From assembly GCF_003367075.2 (NCBI RefSeq), contig NZ_CP065936.1, positions 3,690,001-3,722,000 on the forward strand: a stretch of 32,000 bases of DNA, in the 5' to 3' direction. This document shows positions 5,252 to 16,493 of the stretch, one piece after another; the first letter of the stretch is position 1, and each line of letters begins with the position of its first letter. The position numbers were made by a program, and so were the translations under genes. A model generated the notes under the pieces. The model had not been told where the DNA came from. It was given only the letters and a program-made list of their open reading frames with translations, and did not search any database. The stretch comes from Cylindrospermopsis raciborskii Cr2010 (lineage in GTDB: Bacteria > Cyanobacteriota > Cyanobacteriia > Cyanobacteriales > Nostocaceae).

Positions 5252-5336
5252 GGTGGCTAATAATTGACACAATCCCTTATTATATATCATGGAAGCTAAA
5301 ATGGGAGAATTAAAAATTAGGGAGGATATATATATA

Positions 5337-5699
5337 ATGTTTGATTATACTAAGGCAAAGGAATTCTATCTGGATAAACAAAGGTCACTTCAAGATGAGC
5401 GTCACCTTCTTTGGCAAAAGGCTAAACTGGACTCGGAAAGAATTGTCGCCATGATTATTCAGGACTACGCGCCAAAACAAATTATTCAGTGGGGGTCAGT
5501 TTTAGCGCCAGAACATTTCTCCTCTGTCTCTGATATTGATTTGGCAGTGTTGGGTATTGAACCTTTGGTTTTTCTTCGCTTGTTTGCAGATGCAGAAGCT
5601 ATGACTAACTTTTCTTTAGATTTGATTCGTTGGGAAGACATTCATCCTGCTTTTCAACAAATCCTATTGCTTAAGGGTAAGGTCATTTATGCATCATGA
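5337..5699 (+). CDS. Minimal nucleotidyltransferase (MNT-type) protein, the putative antitoxin of an MNT/HEPN pair
   Basis: The motif block is ...[25 protein letters not shown]... (GS...DxD nucleotidyltransferase signature). The ATG at 5337 is preceded by GGAGG at 5321-5325. The track ORF starts at 5289. The gene overlaps the next gene by 11 nt. Confidence 0.7.
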
Positions 5700-6174
5700 T
5701 AGTTTACCAGTTCTAATTGCAGAAATTGAAGAAAGTCAAAAGGTATTGACAGATTTGGAAAAATTATATAATACCTATAAACCATTTTTTACCGATGAGA
5801 GCAAACGAGATATTCGGGATGCAGTTTTGCTGGCGGATATCTTTTGTAATACTTATACTTGTTTAGAAACTATATTTCTACGCATCTCTAGAGAATTTGA
5901 AAACCACCTGGATGATTCCCAATGGCATAAAGAACTGCTGCGCAAAATGCGGATTGAGATTCCCGGAATTCGTCAAGCTCTTTTGTCCCACCACTCCTAC
6001 CAACTATTGGATGAGTTACGACGATTCCGTCACTTTAAAAGATATTACTACGATTTTAACTATGATTGGTCTCGTTTGGACTATTTAGCCAATATTTATG
6101 AAAGGGCAATAGCTCTGGTCTTTAATGAATTAACAAGCTATATAGCTTTTTTACAGAACTTGATTAACATTTAA
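5689..6174 (+). CDS. HEPN/HepT-like protein, the putative RNase toxin partner of the MNT gene
   Basis: It is all-helical and carries LDELRRFRHFKRYYY, which resembles the R-x-x-x-H(-x-x-x-Y) HEPN motif region. The overlap with the upstream MNT gene is the usual operon layout. Confidence 0.65.
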   Translation: MHHDSLPVLIAEIEESQKVLTDLEKLYNTYKPFFTDESKRDIRDAVLLADIFCNTYTCLETIFLRISREFENHLDDSQWHKELLRKMRIEIPGIRQALLSHHSYQLLDELRRFRHFKRYYYDFNYDWSRLDYLANIYERAIALVFNELTSYIAFLQNLINI

Positions 6175-6178
6175 ATCG

Positions 6179-6530
6179 AATATTAGTAGTGTTGCCATTA
6201 TTGTTGGGTGGAGAAAACCCAACAGCCAATTTACCAGATATGACCAAATTATGTGGGGTTATATTGTATAACTACATATTGTATTAATCCCTCAACTCAT
6301 ATATATAAATATGAACAATAAGAAAAAATTATATTTATGGGATGGTAAAATAAGTTTTTTTGTGGTCGAAGGGGTAAAAATGTGGTATTATGAGGGTTGA
6401 TTATAATGGAGTGTGAGCATTTGTAAAAAAAAGTGTATAGATTTCCATTGTCAAAGTATCACGTCCAAGAGACAATAGTCAACCCCTACCATTGAAAAAA
6501 AATCGGCGCGTGGGTAAATAGATATCCTCG
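6179..6530. repeat. Solo copy (about 350 bp) of the unit that forms the 10588-13298 tandem array, in the same orientation
   Basis: By manual alignment it contains the GTTGGGT-GGAGAAA-ACCCAAC hairpin (6203-6223) and the AT-rich cassette (6298-6407, with TATTAT at 6386-6391 and TATAAT at 6402-6407). It also holds the conserved segment GGAGTGTGAGCATTTGTAAAAAAAAGTG...CAATAGTCAACCCCTACCATTGAAAAAAAATCGGCGCGTGGGTAAATAGATATCCTCG, which ends at 6530. It lacks the roughly 140-bp CTTGAAATTAATAGG...GAATATC segment of the array units. Confidence 0.75.
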
Positions 6531-7814: not shown

Positions 7815-10028
7815 TTATACTGTCAGGGCTACAAAAACAGCTTTTAATTCCTGGAAAGAATCTTTTTTAGTCTTATATAAACTGAGAGAATTAGCTAGTT
7901 TATAATCCTGTTCGAGTGTTGAAAAGTCATGATTGCTCAAAAGCATGGCAATAGCAACATCTCTCATACTTTCTGATACCTTGAGTGTCTCTCCCAGATA
8001 AATCTGCCAATAAACTTCCACGTCACTGTCGAGAATTGGCTTCTCAATTTCTGTCACCACACCCTCCTGCTTTGGATGAATCGAGTAAGCACTATACTTC
8101 CATTCACTTCTGTTTTTGAGGATGATTTCAGGATCATCTCCCATCTGTAATTGGAGATGTAATTCGTTGAGACGTACTCCTTGATATGTGTAGAACATTT
8201 TTGATACAAGGCCGCCAGGAGTGCGTGCTGCTACTTCCATGAGAATTGGTTCTTCACTGCCTTCTTGTAGGAAGAAATCAATGTTGAGTACACCATTTTT
8301 GGGATAATCGTGTTCTAAACTTTGCAACGTATCACTGGAGAATTGTCGCAGTTTCTCAAATTTTGGATCTTCCTCTCTAACAACAATATTCCCGATTGCA
8401 TGACCGTAAATGAAATCATCATTAGGTCGGTAGTGTTTGCAAGCAGCAAAATAACAAGGTAGACCATTTTTCATGACAACACTTGTATTGTATAATTCGC
8501 CTCTGATAAATTCATTAAATTCAAATTCATCATCAGAATCTACATTGCTGTTACACCAAGCTTTCAATTCATCAATAGTATGTATTCTTCTAGTTTTTTC
8601 GCTTCCCGCACCAATGACAGGCTTGACAAAAATGTCATTACCCAGTTCTTTGATGACAAACTGTAAGTAAGAAATTCCCTCCTGGCGGTATTGGCTCTGA
8701 TTAAAAATTAGATGCTTTGGTACACGAATGGATGAATTTTTGAGGGCAGATTTGAGGTAACTCTTGTCAGTAAATTGGCGGATCATTGTGGGGCGATCGC
8801 CAGCTAAATTTAGGGTTTCACGTAACTGTGCGGCTAATAGTACGGAATACTCATCATTGGTGACAATCCGACAATTATCATCCAGTAGTCCATAAGCTGC
8901 CTTAATTTGTTGATAGGTTTGGAGGAGATTTTGCAAATTATAGGGTTCTACAATCTGCACAAGGTTCAAGTGTTGATACTGGGAGGGTATAACCTTACTT
9001 ATTCCTCTCCTACTACAGAGTAAAACTAGATTTCTATTGCTTGATTGAATCTCTCTAAAATCAGTTTTGCTGGGGAGCATATCATGCAGCACGAAAATAG
9101 TCTGCTTATTGGTATCTATTTTATTACTCAAAAAGGCAACTGGATTGGCATCTTCGCGGATCATTTCTTGTACCAACTCGACAATTTCTTGTGAACATCC
9201 CCATGATAGAGTTACACCTGCTCCTCCATGTCCATAATTATAAAATACCCGAGTATTTGGCACTCTTTCTACACAAACATTTTCTTCTGTAAATGGTCGC
9301 AAACCAGTTCTTACAGGCTCTTGTTCATCAAGTGGGAGTGGTCTTAATTCTTGGAGAAATTGCAAACAACCATCATACATCTGTCGAATAATTGGCACTT
9401 CCAAAGATAAGTTTGTATCCCATTGGTCTTGCTGTGCTAATCCTCCTAAAACTACTAAATCATCCCCTCTAGGAACAATGAAAATAATGTCTTGTTCAGA
9501 GGATGAAGTTTCATCGTGGGAAATGCAATGAGCATCTGTGATCACTCCACCTAAATTTTTAACTCTGACAAGTGCGCCTCTCAAGGGATACATGGAAGTA
9601 TCTCCTGTAGTTGCGATAGAACCTAGTCCCGCACAATTAACAATTGCTTTTGCATTGAAGCGACGGAGAAGTTCGTGCTCATTTTGAACTACATTGACAG
9701 TAATTTTTTCCTGGATGATTTCACATCCAATATCCTTGACGTATTGCAGTAACCACTTCATGTAGACATCAGTATTTGCCATGGGAGCCATATGCTTAAA
9801 AGCATCTTTTATGCCTCCTTGGAAAGTTAAATCAATGGTTTCTTTAACGATGTGTAATCCTCTTTCAAATCCATCAACCTTGTCCTTGAGTTCATTCATC
9901 TTGCGAAAATCAGCGGGTCGATTTTCCAAAATATCTCGGAAATAAAAATAGGAGTCTCTTAAATAAACGCCTGTTTCTTGTGAACCAAACTCTGCGTGTA
10001 TTTCCTTGAATTTATTGTAAGCGGTCAT
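7815..10028 (-). CDS. Fusion protein: remainder of a D-amino-acid-oxidase-type FAD oxidoreductase (N-terminal about 290 aa) joined to an ATP-grasp ligase domain (C-terminal about 400 aa)
   Basis: The N-terminal half aligns by eye with the DAAO family (IVNCAGLGS, PLRGALVRV, TGLRPF, YNYGHGGAGVTLSWGC). The C-terminal half has ATP-grasp hallmarks (FVKPVIGAGSEKTRRI, EFIRGELY, LMEVAARTPGG). It lacks the GxGxxG dinucleotide-binding start, which sits in the adjacent 79-aa ORF. Confidence 0.75.
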   Translation of the reverse strand: MTAYNKFKEIHAEFGSQETGVYLRDSYFYFRDILENRPADFRKMNELKDKVDGFERGLHIVKETIDLTFQGGIKDAFKHMAPMANTDVYMKWLLQYVKDIGCEIIQEKITVNVVQNEHELLRRFNAKAIVNCAGLGSIATTGDTSMYPLRGALVRVKNLGGVITDAHCISHDETSSSEQDIIFIVPRGDDLVVLGGLAQQDQWDTNLSLEVPIIRQMYDGCLQFLQELRPLPLDEQEPVRTGLRPFTEENVCVERVPNTRVFYNYGHGGAGVTLSWGCSQEIVELVQEMIREDANPVAFLSNKIDTNKQTIFVLHDMLPSKTDFREIQSSNRNLVLLCSRRGISKVIPSQYQHLNLVQIVEPYNLQNLLQTYQQIKAAYGLLDDNCRIVTNDEYSVLLAAQLRETLNLAGDRPTMIRQFTDKSYLKSALKNSSIRVPKHLIFNQSQYRQEGISYLQFVIKELGNDIFVKPVIGAGSEKTRRIHTIDELKAWCNSNVDSDDEFEFNEFIRGELYNTSVVMKNGLPCYFAACKHYRPNDDFIYGHAIGNIVVREEDPKFEKLRQFSSDTLQSLEHDYPKNGVLNIDFFLQEGSEEPILMEVAARTPGGLVSKMFYTYQGVRLNELHLQLQMGDDPEIILKNRSEWKYSAYSIHPKQEGVVTEIEKPILDSDVEVYWQIYLGETLKVSESMRDVAIAMLLSNHDFSTLEQDYKLANSLSLYKTKKDSFQELKAVFVALTV

Positions 10029-10264
10029 ACACCATTGGAGCGTTCCAGGGATCTAGGAGTCCCATGACGACCACAAACCGCTGGTGGCCATTCCCACAAC
10101 GCACCTGCGACAACAGAGGTTAAATCAGGGGCGAAACGGTCTGCAATAATAATCACATTAAAACCAGCTTCTCTCAGACAGATAGCGGTTGTTAGACCGC
10201 TTACCCCTGCCCCAATTACTAAAATATTGACATCATTATGTTGGTTTGGCACTATCTTTACCAT
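10025..10264 (-). CDS. FAD-binding N-terminal fragment (Rossmann beta-alpha-beta) of the same DAO-type oxidoreductase, in a different frame from the 7815-10028 ORF
   Basis: NILVIGAGVSGLTTAICLREAGFNVIIIADRF...AGALWEWP matches the DAAO N-terminus. Its stop overlaps the next ORF's start as ATGA. Confidence 0.7.
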   Translation of the reverse strand: MVKIVPNQHNDVNILVIGAGVSGLTTAICLREAGFNVIIIADRFAPDLTSVVAGALWEWPPAVCGRHGTPRSLERSNGV

Positions 10265-10863
10265 AATTGACTCTCCGCTCTATAGGATCTACCCAAAGCT
10301 ACTCAGACCTTTGGTCTTGAATTGTTTCAAACTGCCAACCTCTTACCTTTAGGTATGGGGATTCACCAGACTGGTAGGGTTCAAAATCAAACACTTTTAA
10401 TTGAACACCAATCTAGTCACAGCCATGTTTCCTAACCTCAATCCGTATGGATTGATGAGTCTTAGGGATGACTTTTGCTCTGTCCGCACGTAGGGGCTTT
10501 TTATTTTTTGGGAAGACCAATCCCATTCAAGTTTTATCTAATTTTGGGAAGATTACAACTAGAAATTGTTAATAAATCATAAAGAAAATGGAGTGTGAGC
10601 ATTTGTAAAAAAAGTGCACAGATTTCGATTATCAGAGTATCATCCCCAAGAGACAATAGTCAACCCCTACCATTGAAAAAAAATCGGCGCGTGGGTAAAT
10701 AGATATCCTCGCTTGAAATTAATAGGACTTCCGGTGTAATTACCAAAGATGGGGAAAATCCTGCGGTGCTGTAATAGGAGATAGATAGCGATCGCTCTTT
10801 CGCGAGGGGAATATCAAATATTAGTAGTATTGAAACACCAGTGGGATATAGATTTCCATTATT

Positions 10864-10884
10864 GTTGGGTGGAGAAAACCCAAC
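10864..10884. other. Conserved hairpin of the repeat unit: GTTGGGT (7-bp stem), GGAGAAA loop, ACCCAAC
   Basis: A perfect 7-bp stem is also present at 6203-6223, at 11354-11374 and in copy 6 (about 13116-13136). In copy 5 the outer stem base is mutated (ATTGGGT). Confidence 0.6.
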
Positions 10885-10964
10885 AGGCAATTTACCAAAC
10901 GTGACCAAATTATTTGGGGTTGTATAACTTAAAATGGTTGTACAATCGTATTAACCCATAAATT

Positions 10965-11079
10965 CATATATAAATATAAAAGATAAACAATAAGAAAAAA
11001 TTATGTTTATAGGGGGTTGAGATAAGTTTTTCTGTGGTCGAAGGGATAAAAATGTGGTATTATGAAGGTTGATTATAAT
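10965..11079 (+). promoter_or_regulatory. AT-rich promoter-like cassette inside the repeat unit (representative copy), ending in TGGTATTAT and TATAAT
   Basis: The sequence is CATATATAAATATAAAAGATAAACAATAAGAAAAAATT...GGTTGAGATAAG...AAAATGTGGTATTATGAAGGTTGATTATAAT. TATAAT hexamers at the cassette end lie at 6402, 11074, 11564, 11867, 12742, 13397 and 14598. The AT-rich upstream part looks like an UP element. No experimental evidence is available. Confidence 0.4.
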
Positions 11080-11942
11080 GGAGTGTAAGCATTTATAAAA
11101 AAAGTGCACAGATTTCCATTGTCAGAGTATCATCCCCAAGAGACAATAGTCAACCCCTACCATTGAAAAAAAATCGGCGCGTGGGTAAATAGATATCCTC
11201 GCTTGAAATTAATAGGACTTCCGGTGTAATTACCAAAGATGGGGAAAATCCTGCGGTGCTGTAATAGGAGATAGATAGCGATCGCTCTTTCGCGAGGGGA
11301 ATATCAAATATTAGTAGTATTGAAACACCAGTGGGATATAGATTTCCATTATTGTTGGGTGGAGAAAACCCAACAGGCAATTTACCAAACGTGACCAAAT
11401 TATTTGGGGTTGTATAACTTAAAATGGTTGTACAATCGTATTAACCCATAAATTCATATATAAATATAAAAGATAAACAATAAGAAAAAATTATGTTTAT
11501 AGGGGGTTGAGATAAGTTTTTCTGTGGTCGAAGGGATAAAAATGTGGTATTATGAAGGTTGATTATAATGGAGTGTAAGCATTTATAAAAAAAGTGCACA
11601 GATTTCCATTATCAGAGTATCATCCCCAAGAGACAATAGTCAACCCCTACCATTGAAAAAAAATCGGCGCGTGGGAAATAGATATCCTCACTTGAAATTA
11701 ATAGGACTTGCGGTGTAATTACCAAAGATGGGGAAAATCCTGCGGTGCTGTAATAGGAGATAGATGGCGATCGCTCTTTCGCGAAGGGGAATATCAAATA
11801 TCAGTAGGGTTGAGATAAGTTTTTCTGTGGTCGAAGGGATAAAAATGTGGTATTATGAAGGTTGATTATAATGGAGTGTGAGCATTTATAAAAAAAGTGC
11901 ATAGATTTCCATTGTCAGAGTATCATCCCCAAGAGACAATAG

Positions 11943-12299
11943 TCAACCCCTACCATTGAAAAAAAATCGGCGCGTGGGTAAATAGATATCCTCGCTTGAA
12001 ATTAATAGGACTTGCGGTGTAATTACCAAAGATGGGAAAAATCCTGACAAAAAATCTCTCTCCTGCGCTTCTGCTTGATGCTCCCTAACCAGTGGTTCTC
12101 CTTCCCATCCACCAATAACTTCCTCAAAAAAACCAGGAAACCAGCCCCTATTTTGAGGCGTAATTATAGGTGTATTTTCCGTGATATCTTCAAGAATAGA
12201 TGTGATTTCTTCTTCTAAAGTCCGTTGATGACTTTGAGCAAGATATTTGAGTTTTTCAAGAACGATAGGATTAAGCTTTTGCAAAATAACTGGAGTCAT
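11943..12299 (-). CDS. Ribbon-helix-helix (Arc/MetJ-like) antitoxin-type protein; the last roughly 34 codons are read from repeat sequence
   Basis: MTPVILQKLNPIVLEKLKYLAQSHQRTLEEEITSILEDI is RHH-like. GFFEEVIGGWEGEPLVREHQAEAQERD is a tail I recognise from small cyanobacterial antitoxin-like proteins. From 12046 downward the ORF continues into array copy 4, and its tail is the same as in the repeat-derived ORFs (...SLVITPQVLLISSEDIYLPTRRFFFNGRG). Confidence 0.6.
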   Translation of the reverse strand: MTPVILQKLNPIVLEKLKYLAQSHQRTLEEEITSILEDITENTPIITPQNRGWFPGFFEEVIGGWEGEPLVREHQAEAQERDFLSGFFPSLVITPQVLLISSEDIYLPTRRFFFNGRG

Positions 12300-12964
12300 A
12301 AAACCTATAAAGTAAAACCAACCTTAGCTAACTATATTTTAACCCCCCCATGGAGAAAAAATCGGCGCCTAGATATCCTCACTTGAAATTAATAGGACTT
12401 CCGGTGTAATTACCAAAGATGGGGAAAATCCTGCGGTGCTGTAATAGGAGATAGATAGCGATCGCTCTTTCGCGAAGGGGGGAAACATCAAATATTAGTA
12501 GTATTGAAACACTAGCGGGATATAGATTTCCATTATTATTGGGTGGAGAAAACCCAACAGACAATTTACCAAACGTGACCAAATTATTTGGGATTGTATA
12601 ACTTAAAATGGTTGTACAATCGTATTAACCCATAGATTCGTATATAAAAGATAAACAATAAGAAAAAATTATATTTATAGGGGGTTGAGATAAGTTTTTC
12701 TGTGGTCGAAGGGATAAAAATGTGGTACTATGAGGGTTGAGTATAATGGAGTGTGAGCATTCGCGAAAAAAGTGCACAGATTTCCATTATGAGGGTATCA
12801 TGTCCAAGAGACAATAGTCAACCCCCCCGATGGAGAAAAAAATGGGCGCGGGGGTAATTACCAAAGATGGGAAAAATCGTGCGGTGCTAGGAGATAGATA
12901 AGGAGTAGTGATCGCTCGCGAATATCAAATAGTAGTGAGTGGAATTAAATATAAGACAATGTAG

Positions 12965-12989
12965 GTTGGGTTGAAGGATGAAACCCAAC
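12965..12989. repeat. Second type of GTTGGGTT/AACCCAAC hairpin (8-bp stem, 9-nt loop) inside the insert that interrupts array copy 6
   Basis: The sequence is GTTGGGTT-GAAGGATGA-AACCCAAC. It resembles a short palindromic repeat family I have seen in Nostocales genomes; this comes from memory and was not checked. Confidence 0.4.
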
Positions 12990-13338
12990 GCCCGCATGGA
13001 TAAACCATCCTACAAATAATTGTGCCTACCTACAAGCGATCGCTCTTTCGCGAAGGGGGGAACATCAAATATTAGTAGTATTGAAACACCAGCGGGATAT
13101 AGATTTCCATTATTGTTGGGTGGAGAAAACCCAACAGGCAATTTACCAAACGTGACCAAATTATTTGGGGTTGTATAACTTAAAATGGTTGTACAATCGT
13201 ATTAACCCATAAATTCGTATATAAAAGATAAACAATAAGAAAAAATTATATTTATAGGGGGTTGAGATAAGTTTTTCTGTGGTCGAAGGGATAAAAATAG
13301 CGCTCAAATACGTGAAAATATTAAGTTAGTCCCTTAAC

Positions 13339-13402
13339 TTATATATAAAAGATGAACAATAAGAAAAAACTATGTTTATGGGATGGTAAGATAATTTATA
13401 AT
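13339..13402 (+). promoter_or_regulatory. Shortened variant of the AT-rich cassette, again ending in TATAAT (13397-13402)
   Basis: ATATATAAAAGATGAACAATAAGAAAAAACTATGTTTATGGGATGGTAAGATAATTTATAAT is most similar to the solo-copy version at 6298-6350. It points towards the 3' end of the minus-strand gene at 13469-13852, so it is antisense to that gene. Confidence 0.3.
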
Positions 13403-13468
13403 GAATCCCCGTCTCTTTAGAGCGGGGAGAGGTGAAAACATGAGGACTAGGTAACGATTTAGACTTAC

Positions 13469-13852
13469 TTAACTAGTAGTTCCTAATAAAGCTTTCTTTG
13501 CTGCAATTAAATTATTAATCTCCGCGTTAAGGTCTTTTAAAATTTCCTTAATTGTGTCCACTGTCAGAATTTTGCTTTCAGAAACCTGTTTTTTCTCGCC
13601 CCTGTAATATGCAATTAATTGATCAATTTGCTCGACAGTTAATCCTTTTGTATCAACACTATAATATGAATACAGAATTAAGTCATCAGTTTGCTGGGCA
13701 GTTAGTCCTGTTGTATCAATAATAGACTGTACACCTACAAAGTCTACGGGAGTAGCAATAGCGATAGGTGGAGCAAACAACAAGCTGCCAATTGAAACCA
13801 ACAATACTAATGAGTAGACAAGCAGATTTTTTAAGGAAGTAAAGAATTTCAT
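13469..13852 (-). CDS. Small secreted or membrane-anchored hypothetical protein with an internal duplication
   Basis: The N-terminus is signal-like (MKFFTSLKNLLVYSLVLLVSIGSLLFAPPIAIA). Two related segments follow (DTTGLTAQQTDDLILYSYY and DTKGLTVEQIDQLIAYYRG). I did not recognise a family. Confidence 0.55.
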   Translation of the reverse strand: MKFFTSLKNLLVYSLVLLVSIGSLLFAPPIAIATPVDFVGVQSIIDTTGLTAQQTDDLILYSYYSVDTKGLTVEQIDQLIAYYRGEKKQVSESKILTVDTIKEILKDLNAEINNLIAAKKALLGTTS

Positions 13853-13982
13853 TTTTACGTGTTCGGTAAGTTTACGCTCAGTATACTAACATCTTTAGCT
13901 ATAAAAATATCTGAAAATTTAATATGACTTAACATTTTAGTTAGTTGCATACGAAAAAAGAACAGGTCACGAGGTTCATAAT

Positions 13983-14503
13983 AGAGTTGTTGGAAAATAA
14001 GGGATAATAATCAAGCAGACAAGTAGGGTGACATTAATGTTGAAGTTAGACCGCGTCCTGAATCAAGAACGAGTGATTATTCGGACGAAAACCAGAGCAG
14101 GTAAAGTGCATGACAAACGGTTACTCCATGAATCAGAGATAGTGCAATACATTCCTGATGAAGTAGCAATAGAGGGAGATTTGGGTTTTCATGGGTTGGA
14201 GAAAGAATTTGTCAATGTCCATTTACCACACAAGAAACCGAAAGGTAAGGAGTTAACACAGCAGCAAAAGGAGGAGAATCGAGAACTCAGTCGTCAGCGA
14301 GTTGTGTGTGAGCACGCTCACTCTGGAATTAAGAGATATAACTGTGTACATTCTGTATATAGGAATCGTGTGACCGATTTTGATGATCAATTGATGTTGG
14401 TCAGTGCAGGGCTATGGAACTTCTATTTAGATGCAGCATAAATTCAATCGGGATGGGGGAAGTTCTGTCATCCGGAAATATGCTTTTATTTCCCAACAGC
14501 TCT
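13983..14503 (+). mobile_element. Internally deleted IS5/Harbinger-like (DDE_Tnp_4-type) insertion sequence of about 520 bp with recognisable terminal inverted repeats
   Basis: The left end GAGTTGTTGGAAAATAAGGG (13984-14003) matches the reverse complement of the right end GAGCTGTTGGGAAATAAAAGC (14482-14502) at 16 of 20 positions. If the ends are drawn as AGAG...CTCT, AAT flanks both sides, which may be a 3-bp duplication. Only the C-terminal part of a transposase is encoded. Confidence 0.6.
14028..14441 (+). pseudogene. Transposase fragment (C-terminal DDE region, IS5/Harbinger-type)
   Basis: ...GDLGFHGLEKEFVNVHLPHKKPKGKELTQQQKEENRELSRQRVVCEHAHSGIKRYNCVHSVYRNR... is the conserved C-terminal block of these transposases, which are about 250 aa long. 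The N-terminal half is missing and the ORF starts at a GTG. Confidence 0.65.
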
Positions 14504-14514
14504 AATACATGTAT

Positions 14515-14603
14515 CATATATAAATATAAAGATGAACAATAAGAAAAAATTAAGTTTTTTGTGGTCAAAGGGAAAAATGGGAAAAATTTTGTAGCGATAT
14601 AAT
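14515..14603 (+). promoter_or_regulatory. Copy of the AT-rich cassette placed as the likely promoter of the DUF29-DUF29-dam genes
   Basis: The sequence is CATATATAAATATAAAGATGAACAATAAGAAAAAATTAAGTTTTTTGTGGTCAAAGGGAAAAATGGG...GCGATATAAT. TATAAT lies at 14598-14603, 49 nt before the ATG at 14652. The cassette starts 12 nt after the IS right end. Confidence 0.4.
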
Positions 14604-14651
14604 TTAGGAGATAGGAGGAATAGCGATCGCTGGCGAAAAGGAGAAATTAGG

Positions 14652-15125
14652 ATGAATGCTACCAACTATGATGAGGATATTGTCGCTTGGGCAAATCAAC
14701 AGGCTAAATTTATACGCAGTCGCCAATTTCACTTGCTTGACCTGGAGCATATTGCGGAGGAAATAGAGGATGTGGGTAAGAGCGAACAAAGGGAACTAGC
14801 TAGTCGCATGGCTGTCTTGTTATGTCATCTCCTTAAATGGCAGTATCAACCTTTGCTCAGGGGGTCCAGTTGGCAAGCAACAATTAGAACCCAACGGGAC
14901 CGTATTAGATGTCGCTTGCAGAAAACGCCTAGCTTAAAAACTTGTTTACAAGACCCAGAGTGGTGGTTAGATGCTTGGGCAGATGCAAAAGATGCTGCAA
15001 GCCAACAAACCTCTATTGCTTATGACCAGTTCCCTGAACAATTCCCCTGGGATGGCGATCGCATACTAACGGAAAACTGGTTTCCGGAACTTGAGGAAGG
15101 TGAAGAATACTATGAGTCTTTATGA
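14652..15125 (+). CDS. DUF29 family protein (copy 1)
   Basis: YDEDIVAWANQQAKFIRSRQFHLLDLEHIAEEIEDVGKSEQRELASRMAVLLCHLLKWQYQP...SSWQATIRTQRDRI...TPSLK is the DUF29 signature as I remember it. Confidence 0.8.
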   Translation: MNATNYDEDIVAWANQQAKFIRSRQFHLLDLEHIAEEIEDVGKSEQRELASRMAVLLCHLLKWQYQPLLRGSSWQATIRTQRDRIRCRLQKTPSLKTCLQDPEWWLDAWADAKDAASQQTSIAYDQFPEQFPWDGDRILTENWFPELEEGEEYYESL

Positions 15126-15552
15126 AACGGATTTTTATGCATGGACGCAACATCAAGCTAAGGCTATAAAAGAGGGTAAATGGGAATGTTTGGATTTACC
15201 AAACCTGTGGGAGGAGATAGAAGCTTTGGGGAGAAGGGAAAAAAAGGAGCTGAGAAACCGCTTGGGAGTTTTACTGGGACATCTGCTCAAATGGGAGTAT
15301 CAAGCAAAATTCAGAGGTAATAGCTGGTTAGCGACGGTTCGAGAGCAAAGAAGAGAAATAAAAGTCCTTTTGGAAGAGAATCCCAGTCTCAAACCATATA
15401 CCAAAGAAGTCCTTCTTGCAGCATATCAAAATGGGTTAGACCTAGCTGTACGTGAAACCGGGTTTTCTTATGACCTTTTTCCCCAATCCTGTCCTTATTC
15501 CTGGGAACAAACTTTGGATGGAGACTTTTTTCCCACAGAGAGGACGAAGTAA
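15112..15552 (+). CDS. DUF29 family protein (copy 2)
   Basis: MSLYETDFYAWTQHQAKAIKEGKWECLDLPNLWEEIEALGRREKKELRNRLGVLLGHLLKWEYQ...NSWLATVREQRREI...NPSLK is a paralogue of the upstream gene. The ATG at 15112 overlaps the end of copy 1 by 14 nt. The track ORF starts at a TTG at 15091. Confidence 0.8.
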   Translation: MSLYETDFYAWTQHQAKAIKEGKWECLDLPNLWEEIEALGRREKKELRNRLGVLLGHLLKWEYQAKFRGNSWLATVREQRREIKVLLEENPSLKPYTKEVLLAAYQNGLDLAVRETGFSYDLFPQSCPYSWEQTLDGDFFPTERTK

Positions 15553-15575: not shown

Positions 15576-16493
15576 ATGTCTTTATTTAATCCAGCTTTTG
15601 CACAAAATCCTAAACCATTTCTTAAATGGGTAGGTGGTAAGACTCAATTAATTAATGAACTTGATAAACTAATTAGTTATCATATATCTAAGTATAATAC
15701 TTATACTTACATTGAACCATTTGTTGGTGGGGGGGCAGTATTATTTTATATTTTATCAAATTTTCCTCAAATAAATAACATTATTATCAATGATATTAAT
15801 TCAAATTTAATAAGTACCTACAAGCTAATAAAGGAGGATTACAGGAAATTAGTTTTAGTGCTGGCAGAAATTGAAAAAACTTATTATAATCTCACCTCAC
15901 TTGAGAATAAACAACAATTTTACTTAGCCAAAAGAGATGAGTTTAATCAAGAGGATAGTGAATTTTCTCCAGTTAATAAAACTGCTCTAATGCTGTTTTT
16001 AAATAAAACTTGTTTTAATGGTTTATATCGAGTTAATAAAAAAGGTAAGTTTAATGTACCTTTTGGCAAGTATAAAGAACCTAAAATTTGTAATGTAGAT
16101 AATATTGTTTCGGTCCATTACCATTTACAAAATGTTAAAATTTTTCAAGGGGATTTTACAGAAACTATAAGATATGCCCAACAACCGACCCTATTTTATT
16201 TGGATCCTCCTTATAAACCGATTAATGATACTTCGGCATTTACATCCTACTCTTTGGAAAATTTCAATGACCAAGATCAACTTAGACTTAAAAATTTTTG
16301 CGATCAAATACATGTCAATGGACATTATTTTATATTGAGCAATTCAGATGTTAAAAATTTTAATCATGAAAATACTTTTTTTGATGACCTTTATCAAGGT
16401 TACAATATTAAGCGAGTGAAAGCCAGACGGAATATTAATTCTAAAGGTGATTGTCGGGGTGAATTGTTTGAATTGCTAATTAGTAATTTCTAA
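15576..16493 (+). CDS. Dam-type (D12 class) N6-adenine DNA methyltransferase, with no adjacent restriction endonuclease
   Basis: The motifs are KPFLKWVGGKTQLINEL (N-terminal Dam motif), EPFVGGGAV (AdoMet binding) and FYLDPPYKP (catalytic DPPY). By eye the gene is much more AT-rich than its neighbours. Confidence 0.85.
   Translation: MSLFNPAFAQNPKPFLKWVGGKTQLINELDKLISYHISKYNTYTYIEPFVGGGAVLFYILSNFPQINNIIINDINSNLISTYKLIKEDYRKLVLVLAEIEKTYYNLTSLENKQQFYLAKRDEFNQEDSEFSPVNKTALMLFLNKTCFNGLYRVNKKGKFNVPFGKYKEPKICNVDNIVSVHYHLQNVKIFQGDFTETIRYAQQPTLFYLDPPYKPINDTSAFTSYSLENFNDQDQLRLKNFCDQIHVNGHYFILSNSDVKNFNHENTFFDDLYQGYNIKRVKARRNINSKGDCRGELFELLISNF

Follow-up and report, generated by a model that had tools for sequence, protein, structure and literature searches.

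A non-coding tandem array with a unit period of 490 bp spans positions 10587–13298 of a 32,000-nucleotide stretch of the Cylindrospermopsis raciborskii Cr2010 genome (NZ_CP065936.1, 3,690,001 to 3,722,000; hereafter the window, whose own numbering is used throughout). The reading we favour, with a probability of roughly 0.6, is of a hypervariable locus at which a promoter/leader mosaic from the intergenic region upstream of a DUF29-DUF29-dam gene cluster has undergone tandem segmental duplication. A preliminary description of the window had recognised the repeats; it mentioned neither the position of the array in front of a DUF29 gene nor the vapBC toxin-antitoxin module nested inside the array.

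Tandem Repeats Finder reported positions 10587–11807 with a period of 490, 2.5 copies and 98% matches, while a repeat search of the window traced the repeat families on to 13298 and also returned a solo copy at ~6192–6530. We divided the unit into six modules, H-X-A-P-R-S, and mapped them in the window and in all related loci. Module H (110 nt) carries a perfect hairpin (GTTGGGT...ACCCAAC), X (60 nt) is a middle segment, A (65 nt) an AT-rich cassette, P (39 nt) a double −10 box (TGGTATTAT ... TATAAT), R (125 nt) starts at ATGGAGTG, and S (91 nt) contains a second −10-like box (TGTAAT) followed by a HIP1 site. R and S together form a 216-nt core, in which the −10-like box of S reads either TGTAAT or TATAAT. 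Much of what the preliminary description had said of the unit holds. The array is tandem and non-coding, as judged by repeat finding and by the longest open reading frame (ORF) of the unit, which encodes 82 aa on the minus strand and has no Pfam match; the first two 490-bp units as delimited there (10588–11077 and 11078–11567) differ, base by base, by exactly four substitutions, the number given there, at unit positions 10, 18, 40 and 44; the solo copy reported 4 kb off is present at 6192–6530; each unit has one HIP1 site; and the TGGTATTAT and TATAAT boxes are both in the sequence. The perfect hairpin (GTTGGGTGGAGAAAACCCAAC) is also real, occurring once in each unit having module H and once in the solo copy, but it had been placed at the end of the unit and in fact lies ~275 nt into the unit as then defined, right after the HIP1 segment. 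The databases contain one relative of the 82-aa ORF, a hypothetical protein from C. raciborskii whose sequence is partial.

Ten related loci (L001–L010), contigs of ten assemblies encoding an unchanged HepT (window 5689–6174), share the gene order rbcLXS, rplT-rpmI, MNT-HepT, EamA and DAO/ATP-grasp, and were compared with the unit by blastn. Finished chromosomes among these assemblies (3.4–4.1 Mb) are AP018317, CP195152, CP091284 and CP073250, and the array was found in AP018317, CP195152 and CP073250. Multi-copy arrays occupy the same site, between the DAO/ATP-grasp and DUF29 genes, in seven loci, with 3 to 7 copies of R in each; a single copy of the core segment is present in L005 and L010, and L007 and L008 retain just a 41–63-nt remnant at the array site, giving an overall range of 0–7 R copies by strain. 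Except in near-identical strain pairs, the array architectures all differ between loci. The flanking genes are 97.6–100% identical to those of the window, mostly above 99%, and the left flank (10265–10587) is 99.7–100% identical in the seven multi-copy loci. Since the array sits at the same site in nine of ten related assemblies, which carry 1 to 7 copies of the core segment, with differing architectures between flanks that are mostly over 99% identical, we conclude that it is real and that its structure changes much faster than its surroundings. The preliminary description had allowed for an assembly artefact, in which the array would collapse to a single copy; its occurrence at the same locus in finished chromosomes speaks against this. 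The copies are head-to-tail at a fixed locus, their number is polymorphic among close relatives, and they are homogenised and mosaic through recombination, all of which are hallmarks of tandem segmental duplication.

The two ends of the array are constant. On the left, all multi-copy arrays begin with R-S straight after the same unique flank, with no H-X-A-P ahead of it. On the right, the arrays of sister strains end with S positions 1–72 or 1–84, and the annotated DUF29 gene follows ~60–80 nt on; this R-S to DUF29 arrangement at the array end was seen in L001–L004, L006 and L009. The spacer between successive R-S copies is by contrast either the full H-X-A-P or a short form without H, X and most of A, so that the unit measures 490 bp or ~303 bp; the short form, of 303–304 bp, recurs in L001–L004, L006 and L009. 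Fixed left and right ends combined with a variable spacer identify R-S as the invariant repeated element. The last unit of L001 reads ...TGTAATAGGAGATAGGAGGAATAGCGATCGCTGGCGAAAAGGAGAAATTAGGATG, and an identical leader precedes the window DUF29 gene at 14600–14654, with internal units parting from this leader exactly at the HIP1 site. R-S is thus most likely the native upstream region of the DUF29-DUF29-dam cluster, as judged from these alignments. The cluster lies on the plus strand and comprises a DUF29 gene (14652–15125; Pfam E = 1.6e-43), a second DUF29 gene (15091–15552; E = 2.5e-52) and a D12-class adenine DNA methyltransferase gene, dam (15576–16493; E = 7e-61). Module S would supply a −10-like box and a HIP1-containing leader running into the DUF29 start codon.

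Evidence for exchange between copies comes from the R modules, of which 26 distinct sequences were recovered from the window and the related loci. The leftmost R of the window matches a "leftmost" haplotype over its first 43 nt and an internal-unit haplotype over the remainder, a two-haplotype chimera that indicates a crossover or a conversion tract. In a four-gamete test of 16 standard-form copies taken from a 19-sequence alignment, all four allele combinations were present in 33 of the 55 informative site pairs within 60 nt of R. Copies as heavily mosaic as these imply gene conversion. The suggestion of recent duplication or ongoing gene conversion, made originally from the near-identity of two units, is thereby strengthened, both by the four-gamete result and by arrays that differ where their flanks are over 99% identical. 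Deletion junctions fall at HIP1 sites (in related strains) or at microhomologies, including AAAAATC.

The preliminary description had also credited each unit with a promoter-like cassette, and the sequence agrees: nearly all copies of P retain a perfect TATAAT and an extended −10 box. In eight loci, a total of 33 P copies match the 25-nt double −10 motif exactly, among them a diverged copy on a small contig (L012, described below); the solo copies of L005 and L010 carry slight variants of it. When the leftmost, promoter-less copy is aligned with internal units, homology begins inside the TATAAT, 2 nt before the end of the box. The exactness of the double −10 motif and the start of homology within TATAAT favour a promoter function for these predicted elements.

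Copy number and unit structure are altered by unequal homologous recombination and gene conversion among units, with the solo copy 4 kb away probably included as a recombination partner, and deletions arise at short repeats, namely the P and S motifs, which are similar, HIP1 sites and the AAAAATC microhomology. Depending on the strain, the array has gained or lost a vapBC module and a cassette with a small ORF. Under the segmental-duplication reading, each unit would probably add promoter activity towards DUF29-dam, and in the window the unit promoters may also read antisense into a vapB remnant and a 127-aa ORF. On this view, the R-S transcript would serve as a leader or arise as a by-product, and would not be a structured RNA acting in trans.

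Several observations weigh against this reading. A generic promoter scan was not enriched in the region (34 sites against 30.4 expected), and it flagged a minus-strand TTTATA-16-TATAAT rather than the plus-strand boxes; the minus-strand site shares a palindromic −10 region (TTATAA core) with the plus strand, and promoter activity and its direction are predictions only. The solo copy does not precede a DUF29 gene, which means that a DUF29 leader is not the whole explanation. The R module has 21 variable columns in its first 68 nt and 3 in its last 58 columns, and this 3′ part is 100% identical between the solo copy and array units although their overall identity is 85%; such near-invariance could be due to gene conversion or to selection acting on a functional site in RNA or DNA. 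At least one intact P-R copy is present in every genome examined. Finally, a weak hairpin in the 3′ part of R contains one A-U pair that is C-G in two variant-form copies, a change that probably stems from a single event.

Some of these points bear directly on the first of three hypotheses in the preliminary description, an array of promoter-plus-small RNA (sRNA) genes. Each unit would fire from its own TGGTATTAT/TATAAT promoter and make an RNA of ~125–290 nt from R or R-S, with the invariant 57-nt 3′ half of R as functional core, copy number setting the dose and an NsiR1-like architecture; the RNA might act in trans, or might control convergent genes or the nested vapBC by an antisense mechanism. 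We consider this unlikely, though it is the most serious competitor. The perfect TATAAT and extended −10 in nearly every copy, diverged ones too, fit it, as do the start of homology within that box in the promoter-less leftmost copy, the contrast between the two halves of R and the retention of a P-R copy in every genome. The whole unit also folds better than shuffled sequence, with z = −3.7 on the plus strand against −1.5 on the minus strand. However, R itself folds like shuffled sequence (z = −0.88 plus, −0.06 minus), and an RNAalifold consensus of 19 R variants gave a covariation term of ~0 on both strands. The plus-strand stability comes instead from the H-X hairpins: the only strong local signal in a sliding-window fold test (z = −3.5) is an H-X hairpin pair on the plus strand, partly built of G-U pairs and not kept in the solo copy. 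No terminator-like site was found in the array, and Rfam returned no match at the gathering threshold for the whole window, nor at E ≤ 10 for the solo and array regions. The solo copy of L007 has lost its −10 boxes and R 3′ end, L008 has no array, and no homologue was found beyond the species group. On this evidence the sRNA array is not favoured, and the specific proposal that each unit is an independently transcribed, lineage-specific sRNA gene, a long-unit analogue of NsiR1 with the 57-nt R 3′ half as core and a dose of 1–7 copies acting on vapBC, convergent genes or DUF29-dam, seems a little less likely again. An NsiR1-type array proper was considered and rejected for want of the DIF motif in the array, of a nearby hetF and of a family match: TCCGGA occurs in the window only at 868, 14471 and 15083, none of them within 10587–13298, and the window contains no hetF-like gene, the neighbours being DAO/ATP-grasp, vapB, DUF29 and dam. 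In the literature we found no description of the repeat and no transcription start site data for the species.

The remaining alternatives invoke mobility, toxins or cassettes. A pile-up or tandem amplification of a non-autonomous mobile element, either a miniature inverted-repeat transposable element (MITE) or a hairpin element derived from IS200/IS605, would explain the solo copy too, and several features recommend it: a partial copy (H-X-A-P-R) stands at a second locus 4 kb away, the hairpin modules resemble small cyanobacterial repeats and another such element interrupts the array at 12920–13035, the AT-rich cassette recurs in three further contexts within the window, and a 19-nt HIP1-bearing mini-insertion (GGCGATCGCTATTTTATGG) is polymorphic among S copies, being present in the S copy at L001 15763–15781 and missing from the others. 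Yet the repeat search detected terminal inverted repeats on neither the unit nor the solo copy, the solo flanks (...TTTAAATCGA on one side, TCTTCGGTCT on the other) share no target-site duplication, and just two loci carry the element in the window and 12 related loci. A metagenome scan with a 22-mer gave one match, the known solo copy, the array boundaries are fixed relative to the flanking genes in all strains, and the sole transposase is an unrelated DDE fragment. The pile-up put forward in the preliminary description is therefore not favoured, and we regard it as improbable. Much further down the scale is a toxin-antitoxin-type repeat, in which each unit would encode a toxic peptide and an antisense RNA as in the Ldr/Rdl type I systems, or an integron-like cassette array in which the 490-bp units would be recombination sites between vapBC, 127-aa ORF and DUF29 cassettes. 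Tandem units of ~500 bp with a solo copy do reproduce the geometry of long direct repeat (LDR) loci, the palindromic −10 region is readable on both strands, toxin-antitoxin modules lie beside the solo copy and within the array, and AT-rich and promoter modules flank the strain-specific 127-aa cassette. Against the Ldr-like version, the solo copy and the array share no conserved small hydrophobic ORF with a start codon, the candidates of 13–52 aa being different and not membrane-like; against the integron-like version, the window has no integrase or recombinase, most units abut with no cassette between them, and the junctions fall at microhomologies or HIP1 rather than at a fixed crossover site. 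Least credible, and largely refuted, is an outward-reading promoter with a guide-RNA scaffold at a transposon end, of the omega-RNA, bridge-RNA or CRISPR-associated-transposon type. R does divide into a 5′ half that varies and a 3′ half that does not, the latter ending exactly at the limit of solo/array homology, which is suggestive of such a scaffold, but no TnpB, IscB, IS110, Cas12k or Tns gene was found in the 32-kb window or the 20-kb related loci; the variable half of R consists of point substitutions common to a few haplotypes rather than spacers, and R has no stable fold and no Rfam match. The preliminary description, which had raised the idea, had itself seen no nuclease or recombinase gene in the window, and Pfam annotation of the window ORFs and the gene tables of L001–L010 likewise showed none; with no partner enzyme and point substitutions only, the idea is not favoured.

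The solo copy (plus strand, H-X-A-P-R without S) spans 6176–6530, of which the repeat search returned 6192–6530, and is 85% identical to the unit over 351 nt. Its start lies 2 nt past the end of hepT, it points towards the 3′ end of EamA on the opposite strand, and it is found at the same place in nine of the ten related loci, being rearranged in L007. Immediately upstream are the overlapping genes of an MNT (Polbeta nucleotidyltransferase)/HepT-like toxin-antitoxin pair (5289–6174), and the hairpin module begins ~30 nt past the hepT stop codon. L007 has lost the R segment, together with its −10 boxes, from the solo locus, where several copies of the hairpin element of 12920–13035 (GTTGGGTTGAAGGATGAAACCCAAC plus ...CCTACAAATAATTGTGCC) are interleaved with H modules (L007 10500–11300).

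The array was found in the Cylindrospermopsis/Raphidiopsis raciborskii group and seems restricted to one species group. Exact and degenerate patterns of the R core gave no matches in 185,579 species genomes; as the 22-mer is present in all ten related loci, the source group appears to be missing from this collection, and the null result speaks for other taxa only. The core patterns had no matches in viral contigs, and blastn gave none in plasmids.

Within the window, the unique left flank (10265–10587) separates the DAO/ATP-grasp gene from the first R, and every copy described here reads on the plus strand. The module map places the leftmost R-S copy, with no H-X-A-P ahead, at 10588–10803. Full unit 1 (H-X-A-P-R-S; 10804–11293, by repeat search and module map) has its hairpin at 10864–10884, AT-rich cassette at 10974–11038, TGGTATTAT at 11055–11063, TATAAT at 11074–11079, R at 11078–11202 and S at 11203–11293, the last including TGTAAT (11260–11265) and HIP1 (11278–11285). 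Its R opens with a mini-ORF, ATGGAGTGT(A/G)AGCATTT(A/G)TAA (MEC[K/E]HL), at 11078–11098 and at equivalent positions in other copies; GAAGG lies 9 nt upstream, and the ORF reaches 14–23 codons in variant copies. This mini-ORF is probably fortuitous. Full unit 2, of the same composition (11294–11782; R-S at 11568–11782), is 99% identical to unit 1. Then follow a short unit with H, X and most of A deleted (11783–12046, or from 11807 without its linker), consisting of the linker, the end of A, P, R and S positions 1–51; a 3′ remnant of R in a variant form with a full S (12341–12473), upstream of vapB; and a degenerate full unit of 90% identity (12480–12900) with H-X-A-P, a variant "form B" R and S positions 24–58. 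A small, unrelated MITE-like element with the hairpin GTTGGGTTGAAGGATGAAACCCAAC is inserted between units at 12920–13035. The last unit (13057–13298; 96% identity, unit positions 3–250) is cut off within P, leaving H-X-A only, and its end is replaced by a strain-specific insert (13299–14519) absent from L001–L010. A collapsed unit at 14520–14651, made up of the AT-rich cassette, a P/S hybrid, TATAAT and the HIP1 leader, stands directly before the DUF29 start codon.

The nested toxin-antitoxin module is intact in L003, L006 and L009, where an 85-aa vapB antitoxin and a 135-aa PIN-domain vapC toxin lie between units on the minus strand (L003 15839–16500). In the window, L001, L002 and L004 the toxin is lost and the antitoxin is kept, fused to array sequence. 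The resulting chimeric 118-aa ORF of the window (11943–12299, minus strand; true vapB part ~12047–12299) matches a FitA-like ribbon-helix-helix antitoxin (E = 4.6e-4), and the fusion junction falls at the AAAAATC microhomology; vapC appears to have been lost through a microhomology deletion. The strain-specific insert contains an X-A-P fragment (13326–13410), a 127-aa ORF on the minus strand (13469–13852) with a hydrophobic N-terminus and no Pfam match, and a C-terminal transposase fragment (14028–14441; DDE_Tnp_4, E = 1.9e-17). Its promoter-cassette fragment is followed by a hairpin, CCCCGTCTCTTTAGAGCGGGG. Elsewhere the 127-aa ORF was seen only in L012, a small contig of the L007 strain to which a protein search with the in-unit 82-aa ORF had led, and there it lies directly beside a single diverged unit with the order A-P-R-S-H. 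This adjacency indicates that cassettes exchange via shared modules, and selfish cassettes (vapBC, the 127-aa ORF and the insertion sequence fragment) may move in and out of the array. L012 is 1187 bp long and has the same 26-nt sequence (GTGGGGTGAGCGTGCATGACTCCGCC) at both ends (1–26 and 1162–1187), so the contig is bounded by a repeat or is an assembly loop.

Upstream of the array, the DAO/ATP-grasp fusion gene (7815–10264, minus strand) lacks 4 bp (TTCT) at 10025–10040 of the window and is split as a result, whereas L001 has the intact gene (817 aa). L003, L006 and L009 also have a split gene, and most of it is missing from L005 and L010; with such splits and deletions across loci, the gene is seemingly decaying in several strains. 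Strains also differ in whether a further DUF29 gene, located between the SBP_bac_3 gene and rplT, is present, truncated or missing (L002 8088–8540; L004 8336–8809; L005 8672–8872). The extra DUF29 gene of L004 has no S-like upstream region, and we therefore rejected S as a general DUF29 promoter. The closest outside homologues of the window DUF29, from Oscillatoriales, are only 77% identical; together with the patchy presence, this marks the DUF29 genes as mobile-accessory-like. Searches with PADLOC and of PDB sequences were uninformative on DUF29 function.

If the segmental-duplication reading is true, the locus documents a case of cyanobacterial intergenic mosaics being amplified and reshuffled on the time scale of strain divergence, with hairpin modules, HIP1 sites and portable promoter cassettes as the building blocks. 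Its length polymorphism could also make it a marker for strain typing in a bloom-forming, toxin-producing species. Should the units instead make a functional RNA, this would be the second tandem sRNA array of Nostocales after NsiR1, with natural variation in dose. The case also carries a caution, in that near-identical tandem units bearing promoters can mimic RNA gene arrays without structural support.

Comparison with known systems places the array among several types. In heterocystous cyanobacteria NsiR1 is encoded as tandem copies, each with its own promoter. The RNA is 60 nt long, has a DIF motif (TCCGGA) at promoter position −35, and lies near hetF in all heterocystous genomes (PMC4030482). 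The present array resembles it in consisting of tandem direct repeats of a non-coding unit in a member of the Nostocales, with promoter-like boxes in each unit, and differs in its 490-bp units, in having no terminator or Rfam match and in its apparent restriction to one species group. Small dispersed repeats (SDRs) and MITE-like hairpin elements of Nostocales intergenic regions were reportedly described by Elhai et al. in 2008. They are cited in PMC3116915. Like SDRs, the unit is a mosaic of short modules, with perfect hairpins, HIP1 mini-insertions of ~19 nt and nested small elements, and insertion of an element of ~20 nt within another repeat, as expected of an SDR-like system, is seen for GGCGATCGCTATTTTATGG in the L001 S copy; unlike SDRs, the mosaic has been multiplied as a whole, in tandem and with a period of 490 bp, at a single fixed locus. 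The LDRs of E. coli, which encode the Ldr toxin and the Rdl antisense RNA, are tandem units of ~500 bp. Unit length, tandem arrangement, a solo copy elsewhere and promoters on both strands, predicted ones here, are common to the two, whereas the array units have no conserved small toxic ORF. Bacterial tandem segmental duplications of the variable number tandem repeat (VNTR) kind, situated upstream of genes, produce variation in promoter copy number. Compared with such loci, the units here are long and internally complex and have a toxin-antitoxin module nested among them; as at such loci, copy number differs between near-identical strains, the units are homogenised, and the array lies directly upstream of an operon.

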